Source of the DNA: a virus
IMG/VR virus record: IMGVR_UViG_3300045988_160259
Location: 32,001 to 96,000 of that record
DNA length: 64,000 nucleotides
Direction: 5' to 3' (one strand)
The notes below the pieces were generated by a model. That model did not search any database. It was not told the origin of the DNA and saw only the letters and a list, made by a program, of their open reading frames with translations. Both the position numbers and the translations under genes were made by a program. The number at the start of each line of letters is the position of its first letter. The stretch's first letter is position 1. Below are positions 3,177 through 58,653 of this stretch, in pieces.

Positions 3177-3204
3177 ATGTATGTCTCCTTTTATAAAAAA
3201 ATAA

Positions 3205-3287
3205 TACCGGCAGCGAGACTCGAACTCGCACTGCTCATAACAATCTGGGCTTAAACCAGATGTGTCTACCAATTCCACCATACCGGC
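3205..3287 (-). tRNA. tRNA-Leu(UAA): tRNA-Leu (anticodon UAA), long variable arm
   Basis: Manual cloverleaf: acceptor GCCGGTA/TGCCGGT (2 GU), anticodon arm TCTGG-TTTAAGC-CCAGA, T arm GCGAG-TTCGAGT-CTCGC. Confidence 0.85.
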
Positions 3288-3322
3288 ATACGGAGGCACT
3301 GCCTCCATTCGCTAATTATATA

Positions 3323-3412
3323 CGGAGCCTGTAGGATTCGAACCCACGCGCCGCTATTAACGGCCTATCAGTTTTCAGGACTGACCTCTTCAACCAACTT
3401 GAGTAAGACTCC
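3323..3412 (-). tRNA. tRNA-Ser(UGA): tRNA-Ser (anticodon UGA), long variable arm, C at position 33
   Basis: Acceptor GGAGTCT/AGGCTCC, anticodon arm TCAGT-CCTGAAA-ACTGA, T arm GTGGG-TTCGAAT-CCTAC; loop has C instead of the usual U33. Confidence 0.8.
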
Positions 3413-3421
3413 AAACAAAAA

Positions 3422-3505
3422 TGGGCAGAGCAGGAGTCGAACCTGCGGTGTTTCTAATGTAACGGATTTACAGTCCGTCGCTATCGCCACTAAGCACATC
3501 TGCCC
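3422..3505 (-). tRNA. tRNA-Tyr(GUA): tRNA-Tyr (anticodon GUA), long variable arm
   Basis: Acceptor GGGCAGA/TCTGCCC, anticodon arm ACGGA-CTGTAAA-TCCGT, T arm GCAGG-TTCGACT-CCTGC. Confidence 0.85.
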
Positions 3506-3547
3506 ACAAAAATAGGAGAGTAAACCGAAATATTGGATTCACTCTCC
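3506..3547 (-). terminator. rho-independent terminator after DUF262 gene
   Basis: GGAGAGT/ACTCTCC 7-bp hairpin (3515-3547) followed on minus strand by TATTTTTG. Confidence 0.6.
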
Positions 3548-3581: not shown

Positions 3582-4556
3582 TTATAAATTCTCTACAATA
3601 TTATTCCAGTACTGCAGACGAGCTTTAACACCTGCTGACGAAGTAGTTCCAGACTGTACAAGTTGTTTATATTCTTCGTTAACATCATAGTTTTCAATGA
3701 ATTCATCTACGGCAGCACTAAATTTACGGAAGTCTTTGCTGTCTTTTAAGCATTTATATCCACCATAAAGAATCATTGGAATAGAAGTAGATTTTACTTT
3801 AATTGTATCACCCGTATTCAGAGCATCTAATACATCAGTCAATGTACTAATATCAGCAGCGTTAATATTTTCAGCATACCAAATAACAAAACTGTCGATA
3901 TCCTTTGCTCTAAAAGATGTAAAGTCATTTTCTTCATCTGTATTAATCAGCATAAGTGTCTCACGTACCAGGTCACGCTGAACATCTTTCTTATACTGTG
4001 CTGCGCTAAGAACCTTTTCAAAAAATTCATGATCTGCAAGACTGAAAATGACATCACTAACTTTTTCGCTTTCGATAGCGGTACGTTTCTGAGTGTTATT
4101 CAACGGTTTACCATTATTCTGACGAGTAAACATTTCACGAATATCTTCCCCAGTACAATCAGTAAATACGTAGATTGTCATCTCGTAATCATTCAGTTTA
4201 TCTTGTACTGCCTCATCAAGCTGTGCATATTTTTTACCAGCAATTTCATATACCTCGCCATCAACTGTAACTGGTTTTAAATTTTTAGCTAATCTAAAAC
4301 CATCTTTTTTAAAAAAGTCTCTTACTGTGGTAGCTCGCTGAACACCATCAAAAATTCTTCTTACATCATCAGATCCGACCTCACATCTAATTGGATCAAT
4401 CGGATATGGACGAAGCATAGAGTCAATCAGTAAACTTTTCTGACGATTACCCCACTGATTTTCCTGGCGTTGAAACTTGTGTTTCATACTGTATTTTCCT
4501 TTTGCGATATCTTTAGTAAAGTTCTTTGCACTCTGTCTTTTTACTACATAGTCCAT
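3582..4556 (-). CDS. DUF262 (ParB/Srx-fold nuclease-like, GmrSD N-terminal type) domain protein
   Basis: ORF track; FQRQENQWGNRQKSLLIDS ... FDGVQRATT matches the DGQQR signature of DUF262; no DUF1524/HNH half present. Confidence 0.7.
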   Translation of the reverse strand: MDYVVKRQSAKNFTKDIAKGKYSMKHKFQRQENQWGNRQKSLLIDSMLRPYPIDPIRCEVGSDDVRRIFDGVQRATTVRDFFKKDGFRLAKNLKPVTVDGEVYEIAGKKYAQLDEAVQDKLNDYEMTIYVFTDCTGEDIREMFTRQNNGKPLNNTQKRTAIESEKVSDVIFSLADHEFFEKVLSAAQYKKDVQRDLVRETLMLINTDEENDFTSFRAKDIDSFVIWYAENINAADISTLTDVLDALNTGDTIKVKSTSIPMILYGGYKCLKDSKDFRKFSAAVDEFIENYDVNEEYKQLVQSGTTSSAGVKARLQYWNNIVENL

Positions 4557-5377: not shown

Positions 5378-6448
5378 TTATAAATCAGACAAGGATTTTT
5401 GTTCGACTTTCCTTATACCGTCTTCACAAAAATATTTTTCAAACTCTTCATCAACTTCAATATCCTTATACACACTTACCATGTCAAGAGAAGACCATCC
5501 TATAAGCATCTGAATAACGTTATCCGGTAGACCACTGCGAGAACAAGCAGTCGTAAAGAAATGTCTGAGACTGTGAAAGTAGAAGTCAATTCCTAAAATT
5601 CTACTAAATGTTTCAGCCCAACTATTCAGTGTCTTTGCACTCATTGGTTCATCTATATATTCTCCATTCTTTTTCTTTGGGAATAGCCATTCTGATTCAA
5701 TTCCATGTTCTTTTCTATAATTCATCCATAAATCAAAATATGGTTTAAATGGTTTTGAAAGAACATATGCTGTTAGCATTTTTCCACGACTTCCACGCCC
5801 TTTAGTTTTTATTTTTTCTGGAGTTTTATATAGAGATCCATAAATGATATTTTTGTCATCGAAGTAATTTACCTTAAATCTCGGTAATTCACTTTTTCGA
5901 CGTCCAGAATTCATTGCTAAAGATAACATACAAGCCTTATCAAATTGTTGCTTTTCTACAAGATAATCAAGTAAATTTTGTAATTGTTCTTCCTCTAAGA
6001 CAGTTTTTACCATAACTTTTTCATTTACCGGATTTTCTATTTTTCTAACAATTGGACGATAATTTTCAAATTCATCATCCAACATATTTTCAACATAATT
6101 AGAAAGTGATGAGAGAGTGGATTTTACTCGTCTCATTCTAGCAGGACTCCATTTCCATTCCGTTAAACAGTAACTTTGATATTTTGAAATATCTCTCTTA
6201 GACAATTCTACAAAAAATTTGTTGTTGCAATGCTGTAACAAATATACCCAAAATATTTTTAGGTCATTCTTATACTGATCGATCGTTGATCCTGCTCTGT
6301 CAACCGATCGGAGATAATCAAGAAAATCATTTCCTAAATCTATATTCTCTGGATTAACCTGAGCTAATAATTCATTTGTTACAATACTATTGCGTTGGAC
6401 TTTTCTACCTGCTATTTTTCTCACTTCCTTCCAAAATAAAAGAAGCAA
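5378..6448 (-). CDS. tyrosine recombinase / phage integrase family protein
   Basis: ORF track; C-terminal HSLRHFFTT ... LIGWSSLDMVSVY fits the R-H-R-Y catalytic signature. Confidence 0.85.
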   Translation of the reverse strand: MLLLFWKEVRKIAGRKVQRNSIVTNELLAQVNPENIDLGNDFLDYLRSVDRAGSTIDQYKNDLKIFWVYLLQHCNNKFFVELSKRDISKYQSYCLTEWKWSPARMRRVKSTLSSLSNYVENMLDDEFENYRPIVRKIENPVNEKVMVKTVLEEEQLQNLLDYLVEKQQFDKACMLSLAMNSGRRKSELPRFKVNYFDDKNIIYGSLYKTPEKIKTKGRGSRGKMLTAYVLSKPFKPYFDLWMNYRKEHGIESEWLFPKKKNGEYIDEPMSAKTLNSWAETFSRILGIDFYFHSLRHFFTTACSRSGLPDNVIQMLIGWSSLDMVSVYKDIEVDEEFEKYFCEDGIRKVEQKSLSDL

Positions 6449-12518: not shown

Positions 12519-12592
12519 TTGGGGTGGTAGGACTCGAACCCACGACCGTTCGGATATAAGCCGAATGCTCTCGCCAACTGAGCTACACCGCA
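12519..12592 (-). tRNA. tRNA-Ile(UAU): tRNA-Ile (anticodon UAU)
   Basis: D arm GCTC/GAGC, anticodon arm TTCGG-CTTATAT-CCGAA, T arm GTGGG-TTCGAGT-CCTAC; acceptor TGCGGTG/CACCCCA has one C-C mismatch. Confidence 0.75.
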
Positions 12593-13463
12593 ATAATGCT
12601 ACATAAGTAGCAAAATAAGTACGCTGAGATTAAACGTATCTTCGGAAACCTTTACCGACATTATTTTTTCTTCGGTTATCCACTATATGTTGCTTACGCA
12701 CACACATAGTATCTTCCACAACCGCCTTTTGAGAAGAGGCTTATCTTCTTTACTGTATGACTACTCAAGTTTCATCATTCCATTAACACTGCCGTGCTAT
12801 AAATCTCCGCTAAGAGAACTGTGCAGAATCCGCTTAACACATCCAGATATTGCGTATCTTTCAGTGTGTGTATTACCTCCGAAGAGATTACACATTTTGG
12901 CTGCTTACACCATACAGAGGTACAGACTTTCGCTTTATAATTTGTTTGCCTTTTGCATCAAACCAATTTTTATGTTCTTCCTGAATATACTAATTAATAG
13001 AAACGAAATTGAATACAGAAGACGCGCTGCACCAGATGTTTCGTTATCTTTTGGATAACAAAATCCATCACGCCTTCGTAGCTTTCGGTTATAATCCCTA
13101 CTCACATCCTGCATAAGCTAATTTGGCATCTCTACCAATTCACTTACCCAAATGGACATCGCACTTGTCTAATAAGGACTCGCACTATATATCCTTCTAA
13201 TTCCCCATCATATCTTCATAGGTTCGCGTGAGCTATTCTGTTGCGCAGAAAAATGATTCTCAGCGGTTGCCCCTGAATCACCTTGTTGCTCCCTATTTCC
13301 TGACACTATTTCCACACAGGACTTACTCGTTTTACCGGTATGAAACGGCACTTTTTGAGTGCCTGGGATGTTAGTTTTGCATAGATTGACCAATTTTCAT
13401 GGCGACGAGTTGTAAATTCGCCTTTAATACGCTCACACGCATCTATCTGTGCTATGCCACGAG
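12593..13463 (-). ncRNA. candidate large structured non-coding RNA embedded in tRNA cluster (GOLLD/ROOL-class context)
   Basis: About 870 nt without credible ORF, visibly higher GC than flanks, many hairpins including GNRA-capped (12682-12710) and C(UUCG)G (12877-12886) when read on minus strand; flanked by tRNA-Ile and a CAU tRNA-like element. Confidence 0.45.
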
Positions 13464-14152: not shown

Positions 14153-16918
14153 TTATCTTTTACGCTTTCTTTCACGGTCTAATTTCTTACGATATTCACG
14201 TTGACAATCATCACATCTTACTGATTTTGACTTAGAATCAACCTCAATCCATTCTCCACAATCCATGCATTGAATAAACTTTGTCGATTTAATTTTGATA
14301 TTATTATTCAAATTATTTACTACATATTGTCCATAACAAAACCAGAAGAGTTGTTTTCCTCTCTTTTCGTTTCCATATAAATATTGAATCAACATATCAG
14401 CAATAACATCTTCTGAATATCCAAAATCTAAAAATTGATTTCGAATAGAACAAGCAACATAATGAAGATTATCAATATATTCATCTTTCATATTTACCAT
14501 ATAACGGTATTCTTTATTGAGCTTATCATATAAATTAGAAACTTCTTTTGAACATACAATATTTACATTGTGCATCATTTTTTGATAATCTAACTTCCCT
14601 AATTTCATTCCTCTTGTGTTTATAGATTTATTAGGGATTTTGTCATATAATTTATTAACAAAACTTTGATTGCGCATACTAACTTGATCAGCTTCTTTAT
14701 CTTTTGCATATTCAAAGAATGCAGGTAACTTCGCGTTCGTAAATTCCTTGATTTCATCATTAATACGATCGGGAAAAGCAGGTTTGTACAAAGTTTTGGC
14801 GTAATCGATCACAAAATTATTCTGACAACATAAGCGTTTTACACAATCAATAGCATGTTGCTTTTCTTCTTCTGACCCATTAATAAATACATCGTTATTC
14901 CAGATCTTTGAAATATTATTACTATAAATTCCAATATTGCCACCGGTAAATGCAGCATTAAGCCCATCATAAATGTTTTGGTTATTCAAAAGTTTTGGCT
15001 CTGCTTTGCGCATATTATAATAAAGAGGAACAATTCCTTCCATATTTTTCTCTGCGATATTCACAAAATTTAGATCTGCAACAACTAAAGATTTATCTCC
15101 ATCCACATCGAACTGTAAAATTTTACTGATCAAATCACGAGTACTGGTATAAACTCCGTTTGTTGTAAACCATTGTCTGATTCTTCGAGATCGTTCCCCA
15201 TATTTCTCATGCGCAACGTTCAAACGAATAGCATGTTCTTTGTAAAGATGTGGGCTGCGGAGACAATCAAGCTTCTCATTTTTGTTAAAAAGCCAACAGA
15301 ATACTTCTTTGTCATTTAGCAACCCTTCTGGGGTATCTATATGTTTAAACCAATATTCACAAGCCGCATAAAAATCCGGTAAAAGGAATGTATATTTCCC
15401 ATGGACTTCAAGTTTCCCGCTGCGATATTTCTTCACAAGACTATTTTTTACTTCACGAATTACATCTTTAGCATAGGTATCATTCAATAATGCAGGATAA
15501 AGTTTTACAGCTTTTTGAAATGGTGTCATATTTGTATTATATGGGGTGATACCTAAAATCTCTTTGACTGTTTTTTCTGAATTGCAAATATTGGTAATTT
15601 TATCAACTGACCTTTTCGTAAGTAAATCAATCTCTTCATCTGTAATATCAGTTAATGTCTGCAACATTTGATAGTTAATTTTTGCATCTTTAATTCTATC
15701 TTCTTCAATATTACACCGACCAGCCTGACAATTATATTTTTTAAAATTATCCTTATACTCATCCCAAGAATCATAAAACTTATACATCTTGAATTGACTT
15801 TTGGTAAAGATAATCCGAATATCATCATCAAAAATATTATACTCTTTGCCGTATATATCTTTGATAGTAGGAGATCCATCATTTACTTCAATAAACTTTC
15901 TGAAATCAAAAACTCCTAATAATCCTTTTACCCATGGCGCACGAAACATAGTATTTTTAGTCATAACTGATGGAAGCATCATACCAGCTCCATCAGTATG
16001 AGGAATCGGTACATCACCAGTTTTTCTTGTAATTGAATAATCCGACTCATCAATAAAATCAAAAGTCCCTGGTACATTCGTTTCAAAATCATCAATTACT
16101 ATACAACGGTCAATATCAAAATCAGTCCACTGGTCAGTTGCAGAATTTGCTAATGCCATATAAGCTAAATGTTTATTTACATTATTACCACCCTTTGAAT
16201 TGATCTTTTCTATTGTAAGGCCACACATAATAGTTTTTTCAACCTTATCCCAAACAGATTCTTTAATAAATACTGCTTTTTTCTTCCTGATTTGCCCAGC
16301 AGAAGAAGTAAAATATCTATATTTTTCACCTTTATATGTAAAACCATAAAAAGAAATATCTTTAAATACATCAAAATAGTAAATTTGAACCACAATTAAA
16401 GCATCCGTCAGTTCATCTTTTTTTATACCGATAGAGCGAGTAAGAGATGATTCAAATACAGAGATAATATTTTGATCTGTTAATTCTTCTTCTCTTAAAC
16501 GTCTTAGCGGGATTTGATTATATGGAATATTTTGTGAAATACAATAACCAATTTTATTAGACAACTTCTCTTTATTAAGAACTTTATTTTTTAGAAGTGT
16601 TAAAAGTTTTTCTTTTGATGCTTTTGCTTTCTTTCGTTTATGTTCTATAATCAAATTTAATCTGACATAATTTTTAACCATATCATTAGTTAGAAGACGA
16701 TAATCTTTTTCTGTATACGCTTTGAATTCTTTAATCTCTTCTAATGTATAACCATTTAAAAGTAGTTCATTTTCTGAATTGGAAAGCATATTATTCACAT
16801 AATTTCGTTCGCTTCTGTATTTACAATTCATTTCATGCAAATATTTTTCATGATTACTGTAAAAATGTCCCGTATCCACAGAATACATATTAATTTGTGT
16901 ATCTAAAATAACTATCAT
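14153..16918 (-). CDS. single-subunit two-barrel RNA polymerase candidate (YonO / cellular RdRP-like)
   Basis: ORF track, 921 aa; CLRSPHLY (like beta-prime RAPTLH) then QFDVDGDK (DxDGD metal site, nt 15095-15109); upstream SSAGQIR, HTDGAGMM, FRAPWVKG, TKSQFKMY resemble RdRP/YonO blocks; C-terminal CxxC...CxxC. Confidence 0.65.
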   Translation of the reverse strand: MIVILDTQINMYSVDTGHFYSNHEKYLHEMNCKYRSERNYVNNMLSNSENELLLNGYTLEEIKEFKAYTEKDYRLLTNDMVKNYVRLNLIIEHKRKKAKASKEKLLTLLKNKVLNKEKLSNKIGYCISQNIPYNQIPLRRLREEELTDQNIISVFESSLTRSIGIKKDELTDALIVVQIYYFDVFKDISFYGFTYKGEKYRYFTSSAGQIRKKKAVFIKESVWDKVEKTIMCGLTIEKINSKGGNNVNKHLAYMALANSATDQWTDFDIDRCIVIDDFETNVPGTFDFIDESDYSITRKTGDVPIPHTDGAGMMLPSVMTKNTMFRAPWVKGLLGVFDFRKFIEVNDGSPTIKDIYGKEYNIFDDDIRIIFTKSQFKMYKFYDSWDEYKDNFKKYNCQAGRCNIEEDRIKDAKINYQMLQTLTDITDEEIDLLTKRSVDKITNICNSEKTVKEILGITPYNTNMTPFQKAVKLYPALLNDTYAKDVIREVKNSLVKKYRSGKLEVHGKYTFLLPDFYAACEYWFKHIDTPEGLLNDKEVFCWLFNKNEKLDCLRSPHLYKEHAIRLNVAHEKYGERSRRIRQWFTTNGVYTSTRDLISKILQFDVDGDKSLVVADLNFVNIAEKNMEGIVPLYYNMRKAEPKLLNNQNIYDGLNAAFTGGNIGIYSNNISKIWNNDVFINGSEEEKQHAIDCVKRLCCQNNFVIDYAKTLYKPAFPDRINDEIKEFTNAKLPAFFEYAKDKEADQVSMRNQSFVNKLYDKIPNKSINTRGMKLGKLDYQKMMHNVNIVCSKEVSNLYDKLNKEYRYMVNMKDEYIDNLHYVACSIRNQFLDFGYSEDVIADMLIQYLYGNEKRGKQLFWFCYGQYVVNNLNNNIKIKSTKFIQCMDCGEWIEVDSKSKSVRCDDCQREYRKKLDRERKRKR

Positions 16919-17165: not shown

Positions 17166-18125
17166 TTACAAAACAAATGTATATCCATGATATTCACAAC
17201 GTTCATGATACAAACACTGAGTAAAAGAAGTTCTGGAGATATGTTCTCCTAAGATCGATTTGCTTTCTCTTTCTAATTTTCTACGATTATCACATGTACC
17301 TATGTATTCTCCGAATTTATATATATTAAACGCTTCATTACAAACTGAATTTCTATGTTTATATGAATAATCCATAGATTTCTGTTTATTAGATATTTCT
17401 TCTTTAAGTAAAAGGTATTTTTGATACTTTCGTTCAAGATAGATTGTTGATCCTTCATACAACCAATCTAAGATTTTTTCTACTATATTATTACCATCAA
17501 TTAATAATGTATAATTATCATGCCCATTATCCCATCTGCTATGAATATCACCTACAAATTTAACTACATTTTTATTTAAATATTCCTTTGTTTTGTTAAT
17601 AAATGCGGAAGTTCCTGTAAAAGTAATTTGAAAATGTATATAATTTTTTCTGAATTTACTTTTTGATTTTCTTACACTTCCAGATATACTTCCATCTCCA
17701 TCCAAATAACCTCTAAGAAAATGATGAATTAAATTATTTGGAACAATTTCTTCGGAAGGAAATATAATTTTAAACGTTTTTCTTGGCGGACAACCCAACT
17801 TGATTAAATCATCTACTATTTGGTCACTTCGAAAAGACAACCTACACATATCTCTGGTAAAATTGTAGTCTCTATTTTGATATTTAAAAAATTCATTCCT
17901 TTCGTAAATATGTCTTTTTATAGGGCATTCATTATTCATTTCTTCTGCTATGGTTTTTAATAAAGCTACATCCTTGTATTTTAAATCTAGTTTTGCCCAC
18001 TTGCTAGATCCACTATTTGAATAAACACATCCATCTGCATATAATAATCCAAGAATATATGCTTTTCTTTCTGTGTCAATTTTATTAAAATAATTATCAT
18101 TTATATTATATTTTCTATTTTTCAA
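17166..18125 (-). CDS. LAGLIDADG homing endonuclease (double-motif)
   Basis: ORF track; YILGLLYADGCV and FLRGYLDGDGSI motifs; C-terminal NUMOD1-like repeat. Confidence 0.85.
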   Translation of the reverse strand: MKNRKYNINDNYFNKIDTERKAYILGLLYADGCVYSNSGSSKWAKLDLKYKDVALLKTIAEEMNNECPIKRHIYERNEFFKYQNRDYNFTRDMCRLSFRSDQIVDDLIKLGCPPRKTFKIIFPSEEIVPNNLIHHFLRGYLDGDGSISGSVRKSKSKFRKNYIHFQITFTGTSAFINKTKEYLNKNVVKFVGDIHSRWDNGHDNYTLLIDGNNIVEKILDWLYEGSTIYLERKYQKYLLLKEEISNKQKSMDYSYKHRNSVCNEAFNIYKFGEYIGTCDNRRKLERESKSILGEHISRTSFTQCLYHERCEYHGYTFVL

Positions 18126-25319: not shown

Positions 25320-25740
25320 TCTTGTATTGGTGGACAGTTTATAGGGTATAGGTGTTTGAATGGATTCTAGGTCGATTATAATACTGTTTTGTCTTTAGAT
25401 CAATAGTAAGGATGATTTGTGATGATATGATATGGTTTAGATAGGTGAGTGTTGAAATAGTGAAGGAGAGAGGAAGAGTGCAATTTTTAATCCGTAAAAT
25501 GTTTATCGTTTGAGGCCAGAATTTATATGGGGTATTTTTGATTGAGGGTAAAAAAGTGGAGAGTAAAATTTGAAGGGCAGAGTGATTTTAAGGCTTGATT
25601 ACTGAGGTTTACGATAAGGGGTACGATATGGGGTTTTGGTGCGTGGAAGGGGAATTTTGGGCTTGGTTATTGGGGAAAGTGAGAATGAATTTTGGGATGG
25701 AAGATTTTGGAGTTGGTGTGTGGATGAACCGACTGTACAC
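25320..25740. other. C-depleted, G-tract-rich divergent intergenic region (candidate origin or regulatory hub)
   Basis: C is very rare on plus strand, with runs of about 65 nt lacking it; GGGG tracts at 25618, 25630, 25649, 25672; AATTTTGGG at 25653 and 25688 plus variants. Confidence 0.5.
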
Positions 25741-25829
25741 ATACTGCGCGTATAAGCGGCGTTTGCTGGTTTTAACCACCCCCGATTCACCACCAACTCA
25801 AACTTCGGAAAATGCGGATTTTCCGCAAT

Positions 25830-25857
25830 TTGACAAACTTTTTTGTTTGCGTAATGT
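25830..25857 (+). promoter_or_regulatory. possible promoter of plus-strand arm
   Basis: TTGACA (25830-25835), 16-nt spacer, TAATGT. Confidence 0.35.
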
Positions 25858-25912
25858 GGATGGTGTCAAGCGACAAGAAACATCCACCGCTTGACGCAAA
25901 CAAAATTTTTTT
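25842..25912 (+). terminator. long nested stem-loop followed by T7 run
   Basis: TTTGTTTGCGT (25842-25852) pairs with ACGCAAACAAA (25894-25904), then ATTTTTTT; inner GTGGATG/CATCCAC and CAAGCG/CGCTTG are interleaved. Confidence 0.45.
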
Positions 25913-25944
25913 AATCCCGACATAGGGAAGAAAGGTTGGTAATT

Positions 25945-26466
25945 ATGATTAAATTTGAAAACAACAACAGTATCGTAGCAGATAACAGCATCGTTTTAAA
26001 CGGTGTTCGTGAGTATAAACTCACAGATGATGAGACGATGAAACTGATGTCTATCATTGACGGTATGATCTCTCAGAGATCTACCACAGGAGTATCTACT
26101 CCATCCACTCAGCTCTCACGGTCTGATGGAAAAGTTGGCGGTATCACTCGTGCCAGCAAAACGCCTTACGAGGCGAAAAAGGCTTTCAAGCCTCAGTACG
26201 AGGTGAAGAAACTTGCAGACGCTGACGGTAAGTCTCTGTTCTGCATCAGCCGTAAAAACGGCTGGACGAGAGCTGAAAAAGCGTTGACGAACGCTGCTAT
26301 CAAAGCTCTCCCGGAGATTATTACAATCTCCGTGCCGTATGAGAAAGACGGCAAGACCAGGACTTTCTCAGCCTGGGGTTATAAGACCAAAAAACGGGCT
26401 GAGGAGATGCTGGAGCAGCTCCCGACTGAGTTTTCAGCAGACGAGCTGAACAACTGGGGTAAGTAA
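25945..26466 (+). CDS. hypothetical protein (GC-richer than genome average)
   Basis: ORF track frame; ATG 25945; its stop codon lies in the loop of a GNRA-capped hairpin (26456-26473) and no terminator follows. Confidence 0.7.
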   Translation: MIKFENNNSIVADNSIVLNGVREYKLTDDETMKLMSIIDGMISQRSTTGVSTPSTQLSRSDGKVGGITRASKTPYEAKKAFKPQYEVKKLADADGKSLFCISRKNGWTRAEKALTNAAIKALPEIITISVPYEKDGKTRTFSAWGYKTKKRAEEMLEQLPTEFSADELNNWGK

Positions 26467-26473
26467 TTACCCC

Positions 26474-27688
26474 AGCTCGACTAGGCGAGGTTAAACAGCT
26501 GTTAAGCCTAGTGCGTCCCGGTAGTAATACCGGGGGTCAGATACGCTATAGTATCTATATATTATATACGTAACATGTTCTTTGCTACGTTCTGTCTTTC
26601 CAGCGTTATAGCTGGTTTCGACATATGAAATATTCCAAAAAAATTAAATAAATCCCTGATACCCCGTAGAGGAAAGTTAGGCGTTTCTCGAACGGTTTAC
26701 GTCATGGGACGGCATCAAAAGACGCAATTTAAGGCGTCCTGTTTATGCTAGACATACGTCAGATAAACCGACTGACGCAGTTATAAACAGGAAAACTGCC
26801 AATAAAGGAGGTGTGCGTGATGCAAGAACATGAGTAAATCTAGGTTTTGCGGACAAGTCTTTTATTAGGACAAGGAAGCATGTCATACGTTGGATATAGG
26901 CTTTCAGGGGGGACAAACTGGTGGGAGCCAGTCTAGGTGGAGAGGTCAATCAAACTATCTCGGCATAGAATAGTTCGGATAAACCGAAGATGAAGACCGA
27001 AGAAAGTGGTGGTCTTAAGGTCGGCGTATGTATAGGCTAATACAGCTATACGTTCTCATCCTAGTACAAAAATGGCAAGTGATTGACACAACTTGTCATC
27101 ATAAAAGCGTCTCAAGAGACGGTATTCTCAGTCATGATTTAGAGAAATCGTTTCCAGGATAAAGCGTTCTAACGCCAACGAGGTATAGAACGTGGTTGAC
27201 GCGTTTTCAGTATGGCTGAAAGTAATAAAAACTGATGCCCGCTACTGGTAAACAACGAGATCACGGACTAGAAAATAGTGGTATTGACCGTAGAAGCTTG
27301 GATGAAAAATGTGACTTGGATATTTGTCTTGAGAGACGCAGGTAGCACACAAGAGCCGGTGGTGACACCGATACGAAGTGTTTCGTGTGTAGCGTTGATT
27401 GCATCTGTCTGCAATCGTGTGTGAGGTCTGAGCGGTACAATCCCCGACAGTAAATCCTAACTCTAAAGTTCTTTTAAGAACATTGACGGACGTTCTAAAG
27501 TTGATCGAACGTATTGTAATTTAATACGAGTCATCAACAAAACCGTGATTCTCATAATCGGTTTGTGTAAAGAGGTTGAGACAAGTGGAGAACATGCGGC
27601 TGTATCTAGTTTGAGTGACATAAATAGCAGCGTGGCATGGCAGGTACACCGAATAAAGTAGAAAGGTCGGTGTGAGTAAACCCTCCAC
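26474..27688 (+). ncRNA. candidate large structured non-coding RNA / structured 3-prime UTR ending at a hammerhead
   Basis: About 1.2 kb without credible ORF, GC-elevated. Helices include 26517-26534 (GUAA loop), 26738-26791 (9-bp closing stem over nested 6-bp hairpin), 27357-27370 (GUGA loop), 27373-27386, 27397-27416, and long-range 27584-27590 with 27683-27689. Confidence 0.5.
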
Positions 27689-27742
27689 TCCTGTACATAT
27701 GGTATAAGTCCATGTGCTGATGAGACATGAGTCGAAACAGGA
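27689..27742 (+). ncRNA. hammerhead ribozyme, type III topology
   Basis: TCCTGTA / CATATGG-TATAAGT-CCATGTG-CTGATGA-GAC-ATGA-GTC-GAAA-CAGGA: complete CUGAUGA and GAAA cores, UA cleavage dinucleotide, stems I (7 bp), II (3 bp), III (6 bp, open). Confidence 0.85.
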
Positions 27743-27770
27743 TAAATATAATATATTAGGAGGTATTACA

Positions 27771-28025
27771 ATGAGTAATATGAATGAGTTTCTTGCTAAA
27801 AAACGTGCTTTTTATGAGAGCAAGGGTTTTTCGAAAGAAGATGTTAAAAATGCGGTCGAAATCTGGAAGGATTACAAGGAAGATCTCGAACGCATCGAGG
27901 ACGAACTCATAGAAGAAGGGAAACCTGTAAATGGATCTGATTACGAATTACGGCAAGAGGATTCATGGCAATGGTATTCTGGACTTCTTGATGAAATAGA
28001 AGAGAAATATGAGGAGGTTAGATAA
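27771..28025 (+). CDS. hypothetical acidic protein
   Basis: ATG 27771 with AGGAGG at 27758-27763; the first 19 codons of the ORF-track ORF overlie the ribozyme and were trimmed. Confidence 0.7.
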   Translation: MSNMNEFLAKKRAFYESKGFSKEDVKNAVEIWKDYKEDLERIEDELIEEGKPVNGSDYELRQEDSWQWYSGLLDEIEEKYEEVR

Positions 28026-28296
28026 AAAGCGTCAAGAATGATCTGCGGAAACTTGCAGCAATGTATGATTCCAGAATTCAACAACGGAAATACCTGGAAG
28101 ATAACACAATGGAAATCCGTGTATGTAATGTAATCGCATTCGGGCTTCCTACGCAAGTAGAAGTTGCATTCTATTTGTAAAACGAAAACAGCAGAACCGA
28201 AAAGGCGTTTTTGCAAAGGCAAAGCAGGAACGTCTTTTTTGATGCAAAATTTTTCAATTTCACAAGGCAAAATCAAAATATAAGGAGGAACAAACT

Positions 28297-29511: not shown

Positions 29512-29540
29512 TTGACAATATGTGATATATGCCATATAAT
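29512..29540 (+). promoter_or_regulatory. consensus sigma-70-type promoter of the HigB/HigA-like module
   Basis: TTGACA (29512-29517), 17-nt spacer, TATAAT (29535-29540). Confidence 0.7.
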
Positions 29541-29570
29541 AATACTGTAAAAGTACGACGGAGGAATTAT

Positions 29571-29921
29571 ATGGAATTTGATGTAGACCTATACGAAACA
29601 AAGGATAAAAAGAGACCAGTGGAAGAGTTCATCTTATCATTGGATAATAAAATGCAAGCGAAAGTTTTTGGAATGATTCGTTTGCTTGAAGAAAAGGGAA
29701 CTGCGTTAAGGGAACCGTACAGCAAGCCATTGGACGACGGAATTTTCGAGCTTAGAATAAAACAGAGTTCGAATATTACCAGGGTGTTATATTTCTTCTA
29801 TGTTGGAGGGAAAATAATATTGACAAATGGTTTTGTAAAAAAGACTCAGAAGACGCCGCCTTCTGAAATTGAGAAGGCAAAACAGTATAGAAAAGACTAC
29901 TTAGAAAGGCAGGTGAGATAA
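29571..29921 (+). CDS. RelE/HigB-type toxin (phage Gp49-like, DUF891)
   Basis: ATG 29571 behind GGAGG; KRPVEEFILSLD..KVFGMIRLLEEKG..LREPYSKPLDDGIFELR..RVLYFF..ILTNGFVKKTQKTPPSEIEKA. Confidence 0.85.
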   Translation: MEFDVDLYETKDKKRPVEEFILSLDNKMQAKVFGMIRLLEEKGTALREPYSKPLDDGIFELRIKQSSNITRVLYFFYVGGKIILTNGFVKKTQKTPPSEIEKAKQYRKDYLERQVR

Positions 29922-30214
29922 TGGGTAACTTTGATACATTATTAGAAAAGAGATTAGAAGATCCGGATTTCAAAAAAGAATGGGACGAAATTCAGCCAGA
30001 ATTAGATGTGATCCGGGCAATTGTTGATGCAAGAACATCTCAACATTTAACACAAAAAGAATTGGCTGCAAGAACTGGAATTAATCAAGCAGATATTAGC
30101 AAACTTGAAAATGGAACTAGAAATCCTTCATTGAATCTTTTAAAAAGGCTTGCAGCCGGAATGAATATGGAACTTAAAATTGAATTTGTTCCATTACGGA
30201 AAAGCTCCGTATAA
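29921..30214 (+). CDS. XRE-family HTH antitoxin (HigA-like)
   Basis: ORF track; ATGA overlap with toxin stop; LTQKELAARTGINQADISKLENGTRNPSLNLLKRLA. Confidence 0.85.
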   Translation: MGNFDTLLEKRLEDPDFKKEWDEIQPELDVIRAIVDARTSQHLTQKELAARTGINQADISKLENGTRNPSLNLLKRLAAGMNMELKIEFVPLRKSSV

Positions 30215-31972: not shown

Positions 31973-32374
31973 ATGGAAAAACGACATAATCCAGCTGGCT
32001 TTGATTATGAAATCATTGCCCAAAAGAAAGAGTACGCACTCATCAAAATGGAAAGTACAGAAGAGTACAAGATCGTATCCGACATCTGTGCTGATGGAAG
32101 CTGGGCTTACACTGTCTGCTCATGGATGTATGGAAAATATGGTAGAGAAGAATATCTTATTTTACAGGATGCTCTTGATGCATTTCGGTATAAAACGGAA
32201 AGTGATTACATCCCACGGTCACGGCTGGAAGAGTTAGCAACTCAATGGAAAGACAAAATCATTCAGGATTGCTGGATGACAGAAGAAGAACAGAACGAAT
32301 ACTTCATCGGTGAACAAGATATGGATGATGCAGAATTAGAATTTTTCGGATTATTAAAAGGAGATGATGAATAA
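31973..32374 (+). CDS. hypothetical protein
   Basis: ORF track frame; start moved to ATG 31973 behind GAGAGGAAA. Confidence 0.7.
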   Translation: MEKRHNPAGFDYEIIAQKKEYALIKMESTEEYKIVSDICADGSWAYTVCSWMYGKYGREEYLILQDALDAFRYKTESDYIPRSRLEELATQWKDKIIQDCWMTEEEQNEYFIGEQDMDDAELEFFGLLKGDDE

Positions 32375-57627: not shown

Positions 57628-58653
57628 ATGAATGGCAGACTTGAGAACAAATTAAAAATTGAAAGAAGAATACAAATTATGCTTTCTGGAATGCCTTATG
57701 AAGTTACAGAGTTTTATTATAACATCTCAACTCATACCGAGGCTACAACATGTTTGGAATATATAAAAAAAATCAAAAGGTTTTTATTATATTTATACGC
57801 AGAAACTGGACAAATAGATTTTTCATCTGTTACAGATACAACAATAACAAAATTTTTAAAAACAATAGAAATAAAAGAAGAAAATGGGAAGGTACGTAGT
57901 ACATCTTTTTCAACGTGGAAACAATTTCGCGCAGCATTAAATACTTTTTTTCAATATTTATATGAAAAAAATAAAATTAGCAATAATCCAGTAGTATTGG
58001 TGAAACCACCAAAACAGAAGGATAATGTCAAAAGAAAATTTCTTTCAGAAAAAGATTTATATCTTACATTAAGAGCGGTTGAATGGGGCGCTGGAAATGA
58101 GCTGTGTGTTAATAGACAAAACGAATGGAAAGATAGAGATAGAGCCATTTTATTAATGTTTATAACAACCGGTATGCGTGAAAGTGCCTTATGCGATATG
58201 AATGTTTCGGATTTAGACTTTCAAAATAATGAATTAGTAGTAATTGATAAAGGATATAAAAAGAATACTTATACTATGACGCCTGAATTAAAAAAGGCGC
58301 TTTTTTTATGGTTAAAAAAACGAAATGATTTGTTGGGAGATCAAAAAGATATTGATGCGTTATTTATCTCAAACAGAAGAACACGAATGACAACTCGTGC
58401 AGTAAGTTATTTAGTAAATAAATATACAAAAGAAGGAATAGGGCAAGAAGTATCTCCTCATCGTTTGAGAGCAGCATATGGTAATATTCTATTACAGAAA
58501 ACAAATGGAGACCTTCATTTCGTTAAAAACGCAATGAAGCATGAAAACATTGCTACAACAGAAATATACATGGAGAATAAAGAAAAAGAAACAAACGATA
58601 GAGCTGCAAAACTTATTTCTATGTCAGTAACAAAGCTAGATTCATGGGAATAA
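57628..58653 (+). CDS. tyrosine recombinase (XerC/D-like integrase)
   Basis: ORF track; TGMRESAL, HRLRAAYGN, MKHENIATTEIY catalytic landmarks. Confidence 0.85.
   Translation: MNGRLENKLKIERRIQIMLSGMPYEVTEFYYNISTHTEATTCLEYIKKIKRFLLYLYAETGQIDFSSVTDTTITKFLKTIEIKEENGKVRSTSFSTWKQFRAALNTFFQYLYEKNKISNNPVVLVKPPKQKDNVKRKFLSEKDLYLTLRAVEWGAGNELCVNRQNEWKDRDRAILLMFITTGMRESALCDMNVSDLDFQNNELVVIDKGYKKNTYTMTPELKKALFLWLKKRNDLLGDQKDIDALFISNRRTRMTTRAVSYLVNKYTKEGIGQEVSPHRLRAAYGNILLQKTNGDLHFVKNAMKHENIATTEIYMENKEKETNDRAAKLISMSVTKLDSWE

Follow-up and report, generated by a model that had tools for sequence, protein, structure and literature searches.

We analyzed a 64,000-nucleotide stretch of viral DNA (IMG/VR record IMGVR_UViG_3300045988_160259, positions 32,001 to 96,000; hereafter the window), which is part of a 208,682-bp gut-metagenome contig, apparently from a jumbo phage. 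On its plus strand, directly downstream of a gene for a 173-aa orphan protein, the window carries a large structured non-coding RNA and not a protein gene. The predicted excised RNA is 1159 nucleotides (nt) long (26537..27695, +) and is bounded by the cleavage sites of two ribozymes, a pistol and a hammerhead. We consider it likely that the RNA belongs to an uncatalogued class of large structured non-coding RNAs (ncRNAs) of animal-gut jumbo phages, whose members would be excised, fold, associate with a protein partner and act in trans early in infection. The initial annotation of the window had proposed a large ornate RNA at 26474-27688, co-transcribed with the upstream gene and terminated by a hammerhead. 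A large, ornate, non-coding structured RNA is supported by gene-free homologues, the lack of codon periodicity and covariation. The features that define this kind of RNA, as distinct from a homologous family, are all present: a length above roughly 500 nt, no coding function and a multi-domain structure backed by covariation.

The RNA lies in the gap between the stop of the 173-aa coding sequence (CDS; 25945..26466, +) and an ATG at 27771. The longest open reading frame (ORF) in this gap has 48 aa on the plus strand and 68 aa on the minus strand, and each plus frame contains 21-31 stops. The segment 26467-27770 (+) is ORF-free and is kept as non-coding sequence across homologues, and the annotated absence of ORFs held on both strands under the standard genetic code and on the plus strand under recoded ones. 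A missed or decayed protein gene, perhaps using an alternative genetic code, is worth considering since stop recoding occurs in gut phages and the window has tRNA genes. However, none of the five tRNAs of the window is a suppressor, and recoding of TGA, TAG or TAA yields no long frame on the plus strand (81 codons at most). Gene callers predicted nothing in the corresponding gap of any homologous contig. Codon-like third-position conservation, named in the initial annotation as the sign of a missed gene, was looked for and no periodicity was seen: in close relatives with 5% divergence, mismatches are spread over the frame positions (e.g. 12/19/16), and the indel lengths of 1, 3, 5, 6 and 12 are not restricted to multiples of three. 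The coding explanation has a negligible probability and is already effectively refuted. The GC content is 0.43-0.44 over 26400-27600, higher than in the minus-strand arm upstream (0.26-0.35) and the plus-strand arm downstream (0.33-0.40). The reported GC elevation is real in comparison with both arms, but the adjacent upstream CDS is richer still (0.48), so that the gap is not alone in showing the rise.

The search for homologues advised in the initial annotation found the RNA in 39 loci, all viral or metagenomic, which are given L numbers below where they have to be told apart. The upstream protein has 47 homologues in a large protein collection. Each contig fetched for these protein relatives has a gene-free gap of 1.2-2.1 kb directly 3' of the gene, and islands of nucleotide similarity to the window run through these gaps in collinear order. 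A further 22 loci came from two DNA-motif scans of IMG/VR. The first motif (AATAAA..TGA..GTAGAG) was unspecific, with 7 true homologues among about 240 mostly chance loci, and the second, longer motif was clean and gave 15 new viral loci. Two matches of the second motif in 185,579 cellular genomes were rejected as chance, because they reached only 14-16 bits with a covariance model of the 3' domain (27335-27465). All homologues score 44-123 bits with this model, and nothing else in about 0.9 Mb of sequence exceeds 16 bits. Over aligned columns, the distant groups share 46-56% identity with the window.

A comparison with 50,697 deposited phage genomes by blastn in distant mode gave a sole, pistol-sized match in Cellulosimicrobium phage DS1, and megablast with 20 kb around the region had no match in the deposited phage genomes. 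Searching IMG/VR with each of the two flanking proteins singly found no relatives. All families of Rfam 15, including GOLLD, ROOL, OLE, HEARO, raiA, group I and II introns and RNase P RNA, were without a match to 26537-27695 at the gathering score. At E≤10 over 26300-27900, just one chance match of 19.6 bits appeared besides the pistol, and six distant homologues searched at E≤5 likewise matched no known RNA class. The initial annotation could not assign the region to a class by eye, and the pistol is the only Rfam family that we can add. Full-text literature searches returned no description of such an RNA, although absence there is no proof of being undescribed. The RNA is apparently an undescribed class of large structured phage RNA.

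For the consensus structure, which covers the conserved core only, 15 representatives (window 26536-27470 and its equivalents) were aligned with MAFFT and folded by RNAalifold. This core of about 820 nt (26640..27465, +) is defined by the conservation profile, RNAalifold and covariation. The consensus contains 66 pairs, 49 of which stay paired through changes on both sides. The corresponding count is 30.8 after shuffling and 12-20 with partners slid, and none of 500 shuffles reached 49. The fraction of paired cells is 92.0%, compared with 73.2% for shuffles and 33-44% when partners were slid by 1-3 columns. The covariation score is 0.594 against 0.237 for shuffles (reached in 0 of 500) and at most 0.105 for slid partners. 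A second, separate alignment recovers the same helices in window coordinates. The covariation analysis called for in the initial annotation, run here on the homologues with MAFFT and RNAalifold, strongly supports a multi-domain fold.

Large loops in the core are closed by the RNAalifold helices 26657-26684 with 26887-26915, 26933-26943 with 27054-27064, 27107-27112 with 27334-27339, and 27345-27350 with 27417-27422 (all +). Several of the helices close loops of 125-260 nt, and they carry 3-5 pair types each. Conserved blocks in the core remain unpaired, including AAUAAA..UGAUA..CCGUAGAGG, GAUAAACCGAC, AAGAAAGGAGGUG, GACAAAC, AAGAAAGUGGUG and GAGGU..ACAAUCCC..GUAAAUCCUA. Every hairpin listed in the initial annotation is present in the sequence. 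Compensatory changes mark three of them as conserved helices: CGTCAG/CTGACG (26757-26777), GATTGCA/TGCAATC (27397-27416) and the stem with a GGTGA cap at 27359-27368. The nested-domain pairing CCTGTTTAT/ATAAACAGG is kept in close relatives through AU to GC and UA to UG changes. The putative long-range pairing AGUGGAG/CUCCACU is lineage-specific and lies within the non-conserved 3' tail.

The first 104 nt of the RNA form a 5' hairpin array (26537..26640, +) with a fold z-score of -3.9. Its hairpins at 26539-26556 (GAUAC-GCUAUA-GUAUC) and 26600-26615 (CCAGC-GUUAUA-GCUGG) display the loop motif CGNNAUAG. The array is the segment that varies most among close relatives, and its stems covary. In locus L002 the CDS is nucleotide-identical to that of the window, and nearly all differences in the RNA fall in 26558-26665 (16 mismatches and 3 indels), including a compensatory change from CCAGC/GCUGG to CCGGC/GCCGG in the array. 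By this comparison, 26558-26665 appears to be a local hotspot of change or recombination.

The 5' end of the RNA is set by a pistol self-cleaving ribozyme (26475..26541, +), which matches Rfam RF02679 with 69.5 bits (gathering score 34.5) over model positions 1-68 of 68. G26536 and U26537 align to the consensus GGU of the family and provide its G-U cleavage dinucleotide. The predicted cut is between these two nucleotides, as placed from the known G-U site of the family, and most of the pistol would remain with the upstream mRNA fragment. The interval proposed initially therefore does contain the structured RNA, but its first 67 nt are pistol, so that the RNA itself would begin at U26537. The GNRA-capped hairpin CCCGGTA-GTAA-TACCGGG (26517-26534) likewise exists, but it is the main stem of the pistol and lies outside the mature RNA.

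At the 3' end, a type III hammerhead ribozyme (27690..27741, +) was read from its core and stems and from the minimum-energy fold. Stem III is CCUGU/ACAGG, stem I is CAUAUGG/CCAUGUG, the core is CUGAUGA...GAAA and the cleavage triplet is GUA. Stem II is minimal with 3 bp (G-AC/GU-C, then GAAA). The core has the arrangement CUGAUGA-G...C-GAAA-C with the pairs G10.1-C11.1 and A15.1-U16.1 and a non-G at position 17 (A17). The minimum-energy fold is a three-stem hammerhead with stem III (6 bp) open, stem I of 7 bp and stem II of 3 bp. The ribozyme is kept in 4 close relatives, and in L031 and L038 a U.G pair of stem I is changed to C-G. Our classification of 27690-27741 as hammerhead-like is based on the core and the fold and not on a model score. 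Cleavage is predicted after A27695. If both ribozymes cut, the 1159-nt RNA would carry a 5'-OH and a 2',3'-cyclic phosphate. Between the core and the ribozyme lies a variable 3' tail of low conservation (27466..27689, +), which aligns partly to L035-type tails. Its hairpin AAACCG..CGGUUU (about 27540-27565) is common to the window and one other group. The gene downstream (27771..28025, +; 84 aa) is not conserved along with the RNA, and downstream genes vary by locus. The 3' cleavage product would serve as its mRNA.

The boundary elements are exchanged among relatives. At the 5' boundary, a pistol occupies the same position in 30 loci, whereas L045, L046 and L048 have a 7-bp acceptor-like stem around a T-arm with the loop UUCGAUU or UUCAAGU and no pistol; five loci are cut at this boundary by contig ends. 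At the 3' boundary, the initial annotation was right about the hammerhead in that its core and fold are present, but the ribozyme is restricted to the lineage of the window (5 loci), and most relatives have a tRNA-like element instead. In 28 loci the RNA ends in such an element of 72-96 nt, which comprises a T-arm, an acceptor stem of 7 bp and, in most cases, an anticodon-like arm. The acceptor stacks on a 5-bp T-arm with a 7-nt loop of the UUCGAUU type, the minimum-energy folds are cloverleaf-like, and 5 of 8 acceptor pairs covary. L040, L041 and L306 show a degenerate acceptor/T-arm minihelix, and the contigs of L156 and L295 end before the 3' boundary. ARAGORN and Rfam called none of the end elements (e.g. 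L052:2549-2622 and L042:5592-5663) a tRNA.

RNase P and RNase Z act on acceptor/T-arm structures, and the tRNA-like ends are presumably cut by these host enzymes. Because ribozymes and acceptor/T-arm elements swap at both ends, excision would be the conserved purpose: the pattern points to a common need of the family to cut the RNA from a longer transcript, with ribozymes and tRNA mimics as alternative means. The tRNA-like 3' end is probably ancestral and the hammerhead a lineage-specific replacement, since the tRNA-like form is found with the most divergent protein types. In group-B loci, including L052:2549-2622 and L305:3973-4046, the 74-nt pseudo-tRNAs keep a 7-nt anticodon-like loop, CUAACAA, with U33 and A37 in place and AAC as the 'anticodon'. 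The loop is kept between the most divergent branches, which hints that the pseudo-tRNA does more than mark a cleavage site.

A constant companion of the RNA is the small protein encoded just upstream. In all 39 loci with the upstream flank examined, a small ORF ends just 5' of the 5' module. This ORF belongs to the 173-aa family or is a distant relative, which matches the family profile with E-values of 4e-9 to 1e-6 in the N-terminal domain only. The AlphaFold2 model of the 173-aa protein (pLDDT 75.7) has two small domains, an N-terminal beta-beta-alpha and a C-terminal beta-beta-alpha-beta-beta-alpha, joined by a disordered linker (residues 47-70). No Pfam or PHROG family matches the protein above threshold, the sole hint being a sub-threshold Arm-DNA-bind_4 (integrase Arm DNA-binding domain), and Foldseek against PDB and BFVD gave nothing at E<0.1. 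The loop motif hints at a connection between the RNA and the protein. Every RNA paired with the 173-aa protein type has 1-6 hairpins with the CGNNAUAG loop on differing, covarying stems, whereas RNAs paired with the second protein type have no CGNNAUAG hairpin and carry UUACAUUCUC loops in their place. Binding sites that co-evolve with a protein would be expected to give such a pattern. From the genetic linkage and from this tracking of subtype by loop motif, we see an even chance that the RNA and its co-encoded protein form an RNA-protein complex. An assignment as a type III toxin-antitoxin RNA (ToxI-like), a kind marked by near-identical short repeats in tandem beside an endoribonuclease toxin gene, was considered and rejected: the RNA lacks tandem repeats, what recurs is the loop motif alone, on stems that differ, and the protein is without a family assignment. 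The 173-aa CDS with its leader (25700-26500, +) itself folds with z-scores of -3 to -5.6 in 200-nt windows, stronger than the RNA, and the leader contains a long hairpin (about 25838-25908) ending in a U-run.

These observations suggest the following sequence of events. The RNA would be transcribed together with the 173-aa gene from the divergent promoter region. We infer co-transcription because the gene is first on the rightward arm and no promoter-like or terminator-like site of note separates the CDS from the RNA; a ribozyme placed at the 5' boundary would also be meaningful only if transcription starts upstream. The pistol would then cut at G26536/U26537 and the hammerhead after A27695, which would free the 1159-nt RNA and leave the protein mRNA upstream and a translatable mRNA downstream. 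The freed RNA would fold into the multi-domain structure shown by covariation, with helices closing loops of 125-260 nt. Its CGNNAUAG hairpin array most likely recruits the co-encoded protein into an RNA-protein complex, and the complex would act in trans, early in infection. A further, tentative idea, which we hold to be possible although rather unlikely, is that the RNA and the 173-aa protein are a new RNA machine (a self-assembling complex or cage, or a large ribozyme) deployed early by jumbo phages.

Several points weigh against this interpretation. Fold z-scores, calculated in 200-nt windows against dinucleotide shuffles, are modest for the single sequence, amounting to about -2 for 26500-27300 and to about 0 for 27300-27600. 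Since single-sequence folding is only moderately better than shuffles, the case rests on comparative evidence and not on the density of hairpins. The covariation is drawn from about 10 independent lineages, with one alignment serving both to predict the structure and to test it. Expression and both cleavages are predictions from sequence. The hammerhead matches no Rfam hammerhead model at E≤10 over 26300-27900, probably because its stem II has 3 bp only. The boundary modules have exceptions as well: in L305 a terminator-like hairpin with a U-run behind it stands where the 5' module is expected, and L035 is without a recognizable 3' module. No RNA-binding fold was recognized in the 173-aa protein by Pfam or Foldseek. 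The link between loop motif and protein subtype is a single evolutionary split between two subtypes, for which reason the RNA-protein complex is proposed with caution. Finally, the IMG/VR relatives with a 97-98% identical helicase (L006-L030) share both flanks of the locus, have about 4 kb of different sequence where the window has 25700-28282, and gave no RNA cassette by blastn (word size 7) or the covariance model.

The ribozyme-made ends raise the alternative that the excised RNA is made to circularize. RtcB-type ligases use a 5'-OH and a 2',3'-cyclic phosphate as substrates, an arrangement known from viroid-like RNAs and retrozymes, and in the lineage of the window both ends would have this chemistry. 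The length of about 1.1 kb also resembles known ribozyme-bearing circular RNAs (PMC7761336, PMC10827157). However, the two-ribozyme arrangement is confined to the 5 loci of this lineage; most relatives combine the 5'-OH of the pistol with a tRNA-like 3' element, and others are tRNA-like at both ends. RNase P cleavage leaves a 3'-OH on the upstream RNA. Because ends of such mixed chemistry cannot be joined directly by RtcB, circularity is not a conserved requirement of the family. The predicted fold, moreover, has no terminal helix joining the 5' and 3' ends, and there is no RtcB or RNA ligase among about 20 window ORFs scanned (64 of the 208 kb covered). Circularization is therefore improbable as the general explanation, and possible in the window's own lineage.

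Even less probable is that the region is a structured spacer or untranslated region without trans function, whose ribozymes do no more than make the flanking mRNAs independent of each other in stability or translation. Bacterial self-cleaving ribozymes have been proposed for mRNA processing, and the mRNA of the downstream gene would begin at the hammerhead cut. Against such a role, the roughly 820-nt core keeps its unpaired blocks and its covarying large-loop helices down to 46% identity, and the downstream genes that would profit from uncoupling vary from locus to locus. A spacer also does not need processing signals at both ends kept by three unrelated mechanisms.

The genomic setting gives further indications on the ncRNA. 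In all 9 loci for which we had gene tables, the coding strand switches and the protein gene follows as the first or second gene, behind an intergenic region of 0.4-1.5 kb. The neighboring genes are otherwise unrelated between loci (DUF3825, AntA/ANT, GIY-YIG, metallophosphatase, LAGLIDADG/YonV). From this pattern, the cassette appears to be an accessory module that is expressed early and exchanged horizontally. The cassette occupies a hypervariable spot and is dispensable, because close relatives sharing both flanks lack it. Four of the relatives without it (L008, L014, L018 and L027) have an ORF of 83-88 aa at the locus, and L012 has none of at least 60 aa. In all five there is a stretch of at least about 1.35 kb without ORFs, with a cloverleaf-like, tRNA-like end just before the next gene (L012:3455-3560, -, and likewise in the other four). 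This element has the acceptor AGCCGGG/CCCGGCU and the T-arm AACGG-UUCGAAU-CCGUU. The stretch has no Rfam match in L008 and L014 and no covariance-model match in any of the five. These relatives may hold a different large RNA cassette in the same slot. GIY-YIG or LAGLIDADG genes adjoin the RNA cassette in L042 and L048, and such homing-endonuclease neighbors may bear on its movement.

Other features of the window concern RNA or transcription. A GOLLD RNA (12621-13078, -; 196 bits) is followed 28 nt downstream by tRNA-Ile(UAU) (12519-12592), so the phage would carry two unrelated giant RNAs, GOLLD and the RNA studied here. A 921-aa ORF (14153-16918, -) matches Pfam PF05183 in residues 180-320 (E 7.7e-11, 41.8 bits, cutoff 23.8). 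This family is named 'RNA dependent RNA polymerase', and we take it to be related to the YonO-type single-subunit phage RNA polymerases. If the ORF is YonO-like, part of the phage transcription would bypass sigma-70 promoters. About 2 kb 3' of the RNA, a pair of Gp49 (HigB-like) and helix-turn-helix (HTH; HigA-like) genes (29529-30214, +) resembles a toxin-antitoxin module, and it is also found 3' of the cassette in L031 and L004. The window further contains a tRNA-Leu, tRNA-Ser and tRNA-Tyr cluster, a GmrSD_N-like protein, two tyrosine integrases and a LAGLIDADG homing endonuclease (at 3204-3506, 3582-4556, 5378-6448 and 17166-18125, all -, and 57628-58653, +), and it encodes a ClpP-like protease and a PhoH/PIN protein.

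To our knowledge, large highly structured RNAs are rare beyond the ribosome, and each one found so far pointed to unusual biochemistry. With its 1159 nt and its conserved core of about 820 nt, the present RNA would be among the largest of this kind. In bacteria, the 581-nt ROOL is surpassed in size and complexity only by rRNAs, GOLLD and group II introns (PMC5737381). In a large IMG/VR survey of structured RNAs, the motifs had a mean length of 67 nt, and pistol, hammerhead and GOLLD are not mentioned (PMC10690425). The association of the present RNA with an orphan protein is strict and offers a handle toward its function. The swapping of end modules is a natural swap experiment, which gives ribozymes a role in defining the ends of an ncRNA. 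Why such ribozymes, pistol and hammerhead among them, occur in clusters in phages and bacteria is a question that has stood since 2014-2015 (PMC6765202). If our explanation is true, the family would provide the first nameable natural job for phage pistol and hammerhead ribozymes, as drop-in replacements of RNase P and RNase Z sites in the maturation of an ncRNA.

The closest known systems in kind are GOLLD and ROOL (RF02032, RF03087), which are large, ornate, phage-associated RNAs of no known function (PMC5737381, PMC12286853). They are typically located beside tRNAs and are perhaps co-transcribed with them (PMC5737381). The present RNA is likewise large, multi-domain, non-coding and phage-borne, and the layout of a large RNA followed by a tRNA, as in the GOLLD of the same phage, is that of its relatives with pseudo-tRNAs. 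However, it matches neither of them in sequence or structure (E≤10) and is longer, its ends are set by ribozymes or pseudo-tRNAs and not by real tRNAs, and it has a dedicated upstream protein gene and a 5' hairpin array with a shared loop motif. A tRNA-like element also defines the 3' end of the eukaryotic RNAs MALAT1 and MEN-beta, which is formed by RNase P at a downstream tRNA-like element. Most relatives of the present RNA end in such an element. The differences are that the eukaryotic RNAs are nuclear and that, in the phage family, the RNase P cut is predicted and a hammerhead substitutes in one lineage.

The ribozymes themselves have a clustering history. Pistol was reportedly discovered, by Weinberg and colleagues in 2015, through its association with hammerhead and other clustered ribozymes. 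The reason for the clustering of hammerhead, twister, pistol and hatchet 'has not yet been determined' (PMC6765202). Here a pistol and a hammerhead lie at most 1.2 kb apart in one phage, but unlike the clusters described they flank a defined structured RNA on both sides and can be exchanged for tRNA-like elements. The theta ribozymes, which adjoin phage tRNAs (PMC10879173), are similar in that ribozymes and tRNA processing are functionally intertwined. Viroid-like RNAs, retrozymes and Obelisks share with the predicted product a size of about 1 kb, ribozyme-made boundaries and the 5'-OH and 2',3'-cyclic phosphate termini. In contrast to these circular RNAs, it is DNA-encoded in a phage, has no rod-like fold, varies in end chemistry across its family, and comes with no reverse transcriptase, long terminal repeats or Oblin-like ORF. 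The OLE RNA is a large ornate RNA, chromosomal in extremophilic Firmicutes, that is complexed with adjacent small proteins (OapA and others). No RNA or protein homology connects it to the present family. The two systems are alike in the dedicated small protein gene adjoining the RNA, and the partnership proposed here would parallel that of OLE.

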